Shown: piece by piece, positions 58,145 to 58,277 of the stretch | Layout: each line of letters begins with the position of its first letter | How positions within the stretch are numbered: position 1 is the stretch's first letter | The notes under the pieces: generated by a model | Databases searched by the model: none | What the model was told of the DNA's origin: nothing | What the model saw: only the letters and a program-made list of their open reading frames with translations | Made by a program: the position numbers and the translations under genes | Virus record (IMG/VR): IMGVR_UViG_2802429224_000004 | Span: 1 to 64,000 of that record | From: a virus | Lineage: Duplodnaviria; Heunggongvirae; Uroviricota; Caudoviricetes | Length of the DNA: 64,000 nt | Direction: 5' to 3' (one strand)

Positions 58145-58277
58145 GCCGGTTTAGCTCAGTGGGAGAGCACGAGAGCCAAAGCATCGTTTCTACTTCGGTA
58201 GACAGCCTTGCTGGTCAAATGACAACGATTCGATGTTAGGCCAGAGGTCAGCGGTTCGAATCCGTTAACCGGCACCA
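58145..58277 (+). ncRNA. tRNA-like gene with ~75-nt structured insert (interrupted or atypical tRNA)
   Basis: Canonical 5' acceptor/D-arm (gccggtttagctcagtgggagagc) and 3' T-arm/acceptor/CCA (agcggttcgaatccgtt aaccggc a cca) pair perfectly but are separated by an insert with internal hairpins instead of a normal anticodon arm. Confidence 0.3.

Follow-up and report, generated by a model that had tools for sequence, protein, structure and literature searches.

What kind of RNA is specified by a gene that has the acceptor stem, D arm, and T arm of a tRNA arranged around an insert that takes the place of the anticodon arm? We investigated such a gene in the IMG/VR virus record IMGVR_UViG_2802429224_000004, of which positions 1 to 64,000 were analyzed; this stretch of 64,000 nucleotides (nt) is called the window below. 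The window belongs to a P1-type phage-plasmid, with the C4 RNA and sok present and 95 to 99% identity to P1. The element lies on the plus strand at 58145 to 58277, is a tRNA-shaped RNA gene of 133 nt, and is separated by 2 nt (AT) from a tRNA-Asn gene that ends at 58142. As read from the sequence, its 5' half is GCCGGTT-TA-GCTC-AGTGGGA-GAGC (58145 to 58168) and its 3' half is AGGTC-AGCGG-TTCGAAT-CCGTT-AACCGGC-A-CCA (58245 to 58277). Between the halves, at tRNA positions 26 to 43, there are 76 nt (58169 to 58244; A58169 and then 75 nt), compared to the 17 nt of an anticodon arm. An earlier note on this DNA had described the same coordinates, the insert of about 75 nt, the three arms, the CCA, and the position after tRNA-Asn, all of which were borne out by the sequence, and had offered an intron-containing or split tRNA, a tRNA pseudogene, and a tRNA-mimic RNA as explanations. 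We consider it probable that the element is a functional, non-decoding RNA derived from tRNA-Thr, in which the tRNA frame acts as a scaffold and a four-way-junction domain acts as a cargo that binds a host or defense factor.

BLAST and exact-pattern scans together yielded 17 distinct homologous sequences from at least six phage backgrounds. A covariance model, R1, was built from nine close members. All members of the family scored from 87 to 164 bits against R1, with the whole tRNA-Thr-derived element of the window (58145 to 58277), in which the four-way-junction domain replaces the anticodon arm, at 163 bits, while ordinary tRNAs scored no more than 57 bits, the best of them being the tRNA-Thr of P1 (56.8 bits) and that of T4 (54.6 bits). 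Given this difference in score and the compensated stems found in the 17 homologues, the resemblance of the element to tRNA is far above chance.

Three features of a canonical tRNA, a 7-base-pair (bp) acceptor stem, a D arm, and a T arm of the T-Psi-C type, were found in the element, and all three are kept by covariation in the 17 homologues. The 5' strand of the acceptor stem, GCCGGTT (58145 to 58151), pairs with 58267 to 58273 as a perfect 7-bp helix; all seven pairs vary with compensation among the 17 members, and only 2 of 119 cells are nonstandard. The D arm, GCTC-AGTGGGA-GAGC (58154 to 58168), contains A14, G15, G18G19, and A21, and its stem is paired in every member, with a single C-G to U-A change. 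An alternative D stem that uses a second GAGC, predicted by RNAalifold for the close set, was rejected because the second GAGC is missing in divergent members. The variable loop AGGTC and the T arm AGCGG-TTCGAAT-CCGTT occupy 58245 to 58266; three T-stem pairs covary, and the T loop matches TTCRANY in all members. The tertiary Levitt pair covaries as well, being G15/C48 in all members except L158, where it is A15/U48, which argues for a core that is truly L-shaped. The last 11 nt, read from the sequence at 58267 to 58277, are the acceptor 3' strand AACCGGC, the discriminator A, and the encoded CCA. These terminal features vary across the family: the discriminator is A, U, G, or C; pairs 1-72 and 2-71 are not conserved, the latter being CG, GC, or UA; and CCA is encoded in the enterobacterial members and is not encoded in about half of the family. 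In a lambdoid subgroup (L153, L155, L156, and L159), the T stem contains an A-A mismatch and the acceptor helix can be extended to 9 bp (GATGTGGTG/CACCACATC) before ACCA, as in L155 at 5323 to 5452 on the minus strand.

The insert, which the earlier note had called structured, does have structure, and it can now be described as a defined long helix and a four-way junction rather than as loosely structured sequence. In place of the anticodon stem is an outer helix, whose purine-rich 5' strand CGAGAGCCAAA (58170 to 58180) pairs imperfectly with 58237 to 58244. This helix (CGAGAGCCAAA/UAGGCCAG) differs in length and sequence among the members and is partly noncanonical in most of them; GCC/GGC is replaced by CGGC/GCCG in L153, and the helix is fully Watson-Crick (AAGGGGC/GCCTTT) in L154. 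Of the strands that flank the junction domain, the 5' one is 9 to 13 nt long and the 3' one 7 to 12 nt, and their sequences also differ. Next comes helix P2, in which GCATCG (58181 to 58186) pairs with CGATGT (58231 to 58236), with no nonstandard pairs in the 17 members and five pair types (CG, GC, GU, UA, and AU) at one position. The P2 3' strand is followed by the 3' strand of the outer helix, TAGGCCAG, the two together spanning 58231 to 58244, as supported by covariation and RNAalifold. P2 encloses the junction strand J1 (UUU, 58187 to 58189), which is identical in all 17 members, and then hairpin H1, CTAC-TTCG-GTAG (58190 to 58201). This is the UUCG hairpin that had been noticed earlier within the insert; its stem is invariant and its tetraloop is exchangeable (UUCG, UCCG, UUAG, GAAA, or GUAA in the family). 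The invariant J2 (A58202) and hairpin H2, CAGC-CTT-GCTG, follow at 58202 to 58213. The H2 stem shows compensatory replacement, occurring as CAGC/GCUG, CGC/GCG, GCC/GGC, or CCC/GGG, and its loop is unconstrained, with 10 variants. Hairpin H3, GTC-AAAT-GAC (58214 to 58223), is likewise replaced in a compensatory manner (GUC/GAC; GG/CC in L038; GGC/GCC in Pseudomonas phage Littlefix) and has a loop of 3 to 4 nt. The last junction strand, J3 (AACGATT, 58224 to 58230), is exact in 12 of the 17 members and carries single substitutions in the other five. P2 and the three small hairpins form the compact four-way junction in which the outer helix terminates.

This structure was compared with randomized and displaced controls. 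In the nine closest sequences, 99.7% of cells were paired, compared to 92.3% in column shuffles, and 8 pairs were doubly changed. The covariation score was 0.231 versus 0.080 in shuffles, and none of 500 shuffles reached 0.231. When the proposed structure was slid along the alignment, pairing collapsed to 24 to 39%. RNAalifold independently predicted the same P2, H1, H2, and H3, and folds of single sequences also yielded the junction. The part that does not vary is the center of the junction: J1 (UUU), J2 (A), J3 (AACGAUU, nearly so), the inner P2 pairs AUCG/CGAU, and the H1 stem CUAC/GUAG. Across the family, conservation is higher in the insert than in the tRNA frame. The division into a scaffold and a cargo is suggested by this difference, together with the unconserved discriminator, 1-72 and 2-71 pairs, and encoded CCA.

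Several other interpretations of the insert were considered and rejected. Pairing of CUGGUC with GGCCAG as an "anticodon stem," which would make P2 a pseudoknot, is at odds with H2 and H3, both proven by the compensatory replacements seen in L038, L153, and Littlefix. A nested mini-cloverleaf would have linkers of 3, 1, 0, and 7 nt, compared to the tRNA pattern of 2, 1, 5, and 0 nt. The sequence CGAGAG does not represent a sarcin-ricin loop or a kink-turn, as the same region is an ordinary Watson-Crick helix in L154, and UGUUA at 58234 to 58238, which resembles an anticodon loop, is not conserved in the family.

At positions 26 to 43, the 5-bp stem and 7-nt loop of an anticodon arm are absent, and a different fold is present. 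ARAGORN called no tRNA at the element and reported only the tRNA-Asn and one tRNA with the anticodon CAU in the window. The Rfam tRNA model RF00005 gave no match at the element, either at the gathering score or at an E value of 10 or less, whether 2.8 kb or the element alone was searched, and the same searches with Rfam 15 gave no family match to the insert. The only Rfam match to the element alone was that of its T arm and acceptor to the model of transfer-messenger RNA (tmRNA), at 8.1 bits. Since the element has no anticodon, it is unable to decode.

We then considered where the gene came from. In P1, the corresponding position is occupied by trnT, a 76-nt tRNA-Thr(UGU) gene that immediately follows trnA (tRNA-Asn) within the leader of the ban operon, an operon repressed by C1. 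The alignment to the P1 tRNA-Thr gene that the earlier note had suggested proved apt, as the element is a positional allele of trnT. Its acceptor, T arm, and variable loop are homologous to those of trnT, while other sequence takes the place of the D loop and positions 26 to 43, with a gain of 57 nt. tRNA-Thr genes of T4-like Enterobacter phages match the last 32 nt of the element with 100% identity, and a normal tRNA-Thr is retained at the corresponding 3' sequence in SSU5-like plasmids of the Cyrano/LF82 type. Like P1 trnT, the element runs into the end of the plp open reading frame (ORF) on the opposite strand, with which its last 30 nt overlap. These sequence comparisons point to descent of the element from a phage tRNA-Thr gene.

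The element forms one cassette with the tRNA-Asn(GUU) gene (58068 to 58142, plus strand; ARAGORN; 75.5 bits with Rfam). This tRNA-Asn is 100% identical to the copy in an E. coli SSU5-like phage-plasmid (L006, 2830 to 2904) and differs from P1 trnA at 7 positions and by 1 indel, while its flanks are approximately 98.6 to 99% identical to P1. An SSU5-like tRNA-Asn within P1 flanks indicates that the cassette of tRNA-Asn and element is a mosaic import into the P1 backbone by recombination. Upstream, the window is 99% identical to P1 from 57340 to 57720, and coordinates transferred from the P1 annotation by alignment place putative P1ban and P2ban promoters and the C1 operator Oban at 57371 to 57416 (plus strand). 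The tRNA cassette would thus fall under C1 control, that is, early or lytic control. A terminator-like hairpin with a T run is located between the ban promoters and the cassette (57574 to 57596, plus strand), at the end of the P1 "dicF-like region," so that a transcript from Pban would have to read through it to reach the cassette, unless the cassette has a separate promoter that was not detected by the scan.

The family was found in about 18 IMG/VR contigs, 4 metagenome contigs, 11 plasmids, and 2 phage records. All 133 nt are present with 100% identity in 3 Escherichia albertii plasmids, and in six E. coli plasmids RefSeq (NCBI PGAP) labels the same 133 nt "tRNA-OTHER." Six of 5,426 complete E. 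coli genomes carry the element, each time on an SSU5-like plasmid, and the order of the cluster on these plasmids is Asn-Tyr-element-Ser. The other carriers are the Salmonella phage-plasmids pSTM_Phi and pSA20094620.2, the N4-like E. coli phage Jgk1, jumbo-phage contigs of 135 to 342 kb, lambdoid prophage contigs of 43 to 48 kb, metagenome contigs, one 171-kb contig, and others. A further carrier is Littlefix (Schitoviridae, N4-like; L197, NC_048697), whose RefSeq record has no annotation at the element (1494 to 1630 of L197, approximately 7463 to 7599 of the record; 109.6 bits); just upstream of it is a degenerate tRNA-like sequence (L187, 7384 to 7455; 37 bits). No family member was found by pattern scans of the GTDB species representatives, and a first metagenome pattern scan gave no match. 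The hits L009, L011 to L022, L024 to L027, L145 to L148, and L199 to L223 were mostly chance matches of the exact 16-mer and gapped-pattern scans and were set aside. The family is a rare one and, in the material sampled, occurred only in phages of Gammaproteobacteria. We found this RNA described neither in Rfam 15 nor in the full-text literature searched, and public records list it as "tRNA-OTHER" or leave it unannotated; the family is apparently undescribed.

Gene context was compared across these backgrounds. All-against-all BLASTP of ORFs within 8 kb of the element found no protein family common to all of them. Only the N4-like trio of Jgk1, L160, and Littlefix share genes, which are of N4 type and include that of the giant virion RNA polymerase. 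In Littlefix, the element lies upstream of the virion RNA polymerase gene, with gp10 on its other side. One lambdoid prophage has it on the same strand as an N-like antiterminator gene, which follows 25 nt downstream, and in another lambdoid contig, Erf-like and RecBCD-inhibitor genes are 1.5 to 3.7 kb away. Wherever they can be read, the positions of the element appear to be early or accessory. The lambdoid contigs contain no tRNA-like gene besides the element, which suggests that its function is independent of neighboring tRNAs. The lack of a protein gene common to all contexts points to a partner encoded by the host, and because no phage partner gene is conserved, the junction module most likely binds a conserved host-side factor.

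Taken together, these results suggest the following course of events. The element would be transcribed early within the tRNA cassette, in the window from the C1-repressed promoter of the ban operon. RNase P would cut at G58145, and the 3' end would be trimmed to the encoded CCA. The product would be a stable, abundant, tRNA-like RNA that is unable to read codons. Its tRNA frame would provide processing and stability and would be free to evolve by compensatory change, while the junction domain would be a cargo constrained in sequence that binds a conserved host or defense factor of Gammaproteobacteria.

What might that factor be? PARIS AriB cleaves the tRNAs for Lys(UUU), Thr(UGU), and Asn(GUU), and phage copies of these tRNAs rescue (PMC12409363). 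The element is allelic with tRNA-Thr(UGU) in P1-like phages and SSU5-like phage-plasmids and is linked to tRNA-Asn(GUU), both of which are AriB targets, and this is the origin of the idea that it inhibits tRNA-targeting immunity as an anti-defense decoy. This is the most attractive specific role for the element, although we regard it as a possibility of rather low probability. According to this explanation, the RNA would bind a tRNA-targeting nuclease, either PARIS AriB or another anticodon nuclease that recognizes the body of tRNA-Thr, tRNA-Asn, or tRNA-Lys, and would sequester or block it for want of a cleavable anticodon stem-loop, thus serving as an alternative allele to a cleavage-resistant tRNA-Thr; we view this as possible and doubtful. 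The match of the allele and its neighbor to exactly the tRNAs that AriB targets is in its favor, as are the reported contacts of AriB beyond the anticodon stem and the early operons and patchy distribution, which are suggestive of horizontal transfer and typical of counter-defense genes. Conversely, the strong conservation lies in the four-way junction and not in the tRNA body, and a pure body decoy needs no junction; the acceptor-stem sequences vary freely; and the family takes in a Pseudomonas phage and lambdoid prophages with no known PARIS link. The decoding role of counter-defense tRNAs, which replace a cleaved host tRNA, is not open to an element without an anticodon. A broader version of the idea, which we put forward tentatively, is that the tRNA-Thr body with its four-way-junction "warhead" would be the first RNA-only counter-defense or host-takeover factor built on a tRNA scaffold, trapping or inhibiting an immune nuclease that targets tRNA, for example AriB, or another conserved tRNA-binding host factor and being swapped between unrelated phages as an alternative to a cleavage-resistant tRNA-Thr. 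Of the proposal in the earlier note that the element is a tRNA-mimic RNA, the architecture and the selection on it are supported, and the decoy function may be conjectured.

Some points weigh against the reading of the element as a tRNA scaffold that carries a factor-binding junction. We infer its transcription, cleavage by RNase P, and stability from its likeness to tRNA and from its context. The invariance of J1, H1, and J3 is partly forced by the exact-pattern searches that found members. Four members are independent in this respect, L038, L103, and L141 having been found via the 3' junction only and Littlefix via TCGTTTC only, and the conservation of the junction center also holds in these four. 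In a small family with a near-identical core, part of the conservation may reflect recent horizontal transfer. As for the decoy role in particular, it draws solely on the allelism with tRNA-Thr and the PARIS targets in the literature; AriB cuts the anticodon stem, which is missing from the element; and the lambdoid members, which have no accompanying tRNA, fit an autonomous function and not specifically one in the tRNA pool.

A different use of the same frame would be as a charged, non-ribosomal tRNA. The frame would be aminoacylated, perhaps with the junction as an identity element, and the product would act as a donor or sensor outside translation or would titrate a synthetase such as threonyl-tRNA synthetase (ThrRS). 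The full L-shaped core, the descent from tRNA-Thr, and the CCA encoded in the enterobacterial members are what such a tRNA would have. The identity elements of E. coli ThrRS are G1-C72, C2-G71, and G35/U36 of the anticodon. In the family, 2-71 and the discriminator vary, there is no anticodon, and about half of the members do not encode CCA, which makes this explanation improbable.

Scarcely any more probable, and if anything slightly less so, is a small-molecule or nucleotide-signal aptamer on a tRNA scaffold, a "sponge" or switch in which the junction strands form the ligand pocket. Invariant junction nucleotides amid freely varying helices and loops are the pattern of riboswitch aptamers, and two mutually exclusive helices of similar stability could serve as the switch. 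These arise from a tandem CGAU on the 3' side (AA-CGAU-U-CGAU-GU), which gives AUCGUU (58183 to 58188) two partners: the distal CGAU, in P2 (58231 to 58236, proven by covariation), or J3 (58224 to 58229), in an alternative helix, P2'. When the domain was folded in isolation, the minimum-free-energy structure contained P2' in 4 of 5 members. The tandem CGAU may therefore form a two-state switch between P2 and P2', all of whose nucleotides are invariant and outside the reach of covariation. The aptamer explanation is opposed by the lack of a match to any Rfam riboswitch family, even at an E value of 10 or less, by the lack of an expression platform, by a gene context that suggests no ligand, and by the same invariance of P2'.

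If the insert of about 75 nt were an intron, its removal from tRNA-Thr, by itself or by proteins, would give a functional tRNA. The tRNA frame is perfect, UGU at 58234 to 58236, near the 3' end of the insert, aligns with the anticodon of P1 tRNA-Thr, and annotation based on tRNAscan-SE gives a tRNA of undetermined type. In none of the 17 members, however, does any contiguous excision leave an anticodon arm of 5 bp and 7 nt. The UGU is part of the covarying P2, and other members have UCU, UUU, or UAU in its place. A group I core (P3 to P9) takes about 200 nt or more, far above the 75 nt of the insert, in which Rfam 15 found no match to a group I intron or other ribozyme. The intron-containing tRNA proposed in the earlier note is thus very improbable, and its split tRNA was discarded, as the element is encoded in one piece and its ends pair with each other. 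Least credible of all is a tRNA-Thr pseudogene decaying after an insertion, or an element that serves plp only in cis, for processing or as antisense: the element is not called as a tRNA and its 3' 30 nt do overlap plp at its end, but decay cannot be reconciled with compensatory changes throughout the stems and with the stronger conservation of the insert relative to the frame, and the family is present in unrelated phages, including phages with no plp homologue nearby.

The reading of the element as a scaffolded, non-decoding RNA was then set beside known systems. Akin by descent are P1 trnT and the phage tRNA-Thr(UGU) genes like it, with which the element has in common the locus, the acceptor, D, and T arm sequences, and the variable loop; it differs in the anticodon arm that it lacks, the 57 extra nt, and the replaced D loop and positions 26 to 43. 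T4 RNA C and RNA D (species 1 and 2, encoded by rnaC and rnaD) are, like the element, small non-tRNA RNAs inside a phage tRNA cluster, a placement found for the element both in the window and in the SSU5-like cluster. The T4 RNAs are stable and are processed together with the tRNAs, as is predicted for the element. The product of rnaC ends in a T arm and acceptor-like pairing, as the element does. Neither T4 RNA has a complete acceptor, D, and T frame or a four-way junction, and there is no homology to the element in sequence or structure. Homology was rejected because R1 matched only true tRNAs in the T4 region and nothing on rnaC or rnaD (L028, 2909 to 3172). The biological roles of RNA C and RNA D are still not established (PMC3014915).

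YrlA (RF02553), which is bound by Ro60/Rsr, offers a likeness of another sort. It has a tRNA-like module of acceptor-like, D, and T arms, with tertiary pairs that include a covarying Levitt pair, and a long effector-binding helix at the position of the anticodon arm, and it also occurs in phages. One member of YrlA is cut by RNase P and given CCA (PMC4201824). Unlike the element, YrlA is circularly permuted, so that it ends in the long stem and its acceptor is closed; it also has a GNCGAAN0-1G motif and is encoded beside rsr. No rsr (Ro60) gene was found near the element, whose P1-type neighbors are dmt, plp, upl, and tciA to tciC. The RF02553 model matched the window at 20.5 bits, compared to a gathering score of 69, and the match ran from the end of tRNA-Asn into the beginning of the element; it was rejected as an artifact of two adjacent tRNA frames. 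In tmRNA, a tRNA-like acceptor and T-arm module is likewise joined to a large internal domain. The element differs in having a full D arm, a C-G instead of G3-U70 at pair 3-70, and no pseudoknots, and ARAGORN reported no tmRNA. A tmRNA-like mini-ORF in the insert, GCA TCG TTT CTA CTT CGG TAG, was dismissed as a by-product of the conserved H1 stem. Finally, in the engineered "tRNA scaffold" for recombinant RNA, the anticodon arm is swapped for an RNA of interest while the acceptor, D, and T arms are kept for processing and stability. This is the design of the element; the engineered scaffold is man-made, and the likeness is one of architecture only, silent on the function of a natural cargo.

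Other RNA-like features were observed around the element and in other phages. The tRNA cassette of the window is flanked by two long hairpins, both on the plus strand and both starting with ACAACAGGTAAGGG, at 58278 to 58372 (-41.6 kcal/mol) and at 57780 to 57885 (-44.7 kcal/mol; RNAfold). The hairpin at 58278 to 58372 contains a T-arm-like GGGTTCGAATCCC hairpin, is kept in P1, and lies within plp on the opposite strand; its motif also follows the element in the Salmonella SSU5-like loci L007 and L008. These flanking hairpins may be additional processed RNAs or processing signals. In the area between upl and tciA (58856 to 58976, plus strand), a subthreshold match to the gammaproteobacterial small RNA STnc100 was found (37.8 bits, compared to a gathering score of 47; E value of 5e-6). 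Phage Jgk1 (L002) encodes an unrelated RNA of 129 nt approximately 280 nt upstream of the element (2585 to 2713, plus strand), which has a 7-bp acceptor, a T arm, ACCA, and no D arm and was not called by ARAGORN; a possible third such element was located by eye at approximately 2867 to 2993. tRNA-like genes with large inserts were also seen in other IMG/VR phage contigs: L168 at 3120 to 3247 (minus strand), L049 at 5590 to 7167 (plus strand), L121 at 3120 to 3275 (minus strand), and L173 at 125 to 252 (minus strand). The one in L168 resembles tRNA-Thr(UGU) and has an intact anticodon arm and an insertion of approximately 55 nt between positions 26 and 27; in L049 there are four tRNA-like genes of 111 to 156 nt, with inserts of approximately 35 to 60 nt as estimated by eye from these lengths.

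The tRNA genes of phages have recently been recast as weapons against tRNA-cleaving immunity. In the family described here, such a gene has turned into one for a non-decoding RNA with nothing left of a tRNA but its shell, a natural counterpart of the engineered tRNA scaffold. It accounts for a recurrent "tRNA-OTHER" annotation in the phage-plasmids of E. coli, Salmonella, and E. albertii and fills unannotated gaps in N4-like genomes. The element might also offer a way into a 50-year-old puzzle, that of the stable non-tRNA RNAs found in phage tRNA clusters. As it sits in relatives of genetically tractable phages, namely P1-like phage-plasmids and lambdoid prophages, these ideas can be tested directly. 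If its cargo does bind a defense nuclease or another host factor, an RNA-based, tRNA-scaffolded mechanism would join the anti-defense repertoire of phages.

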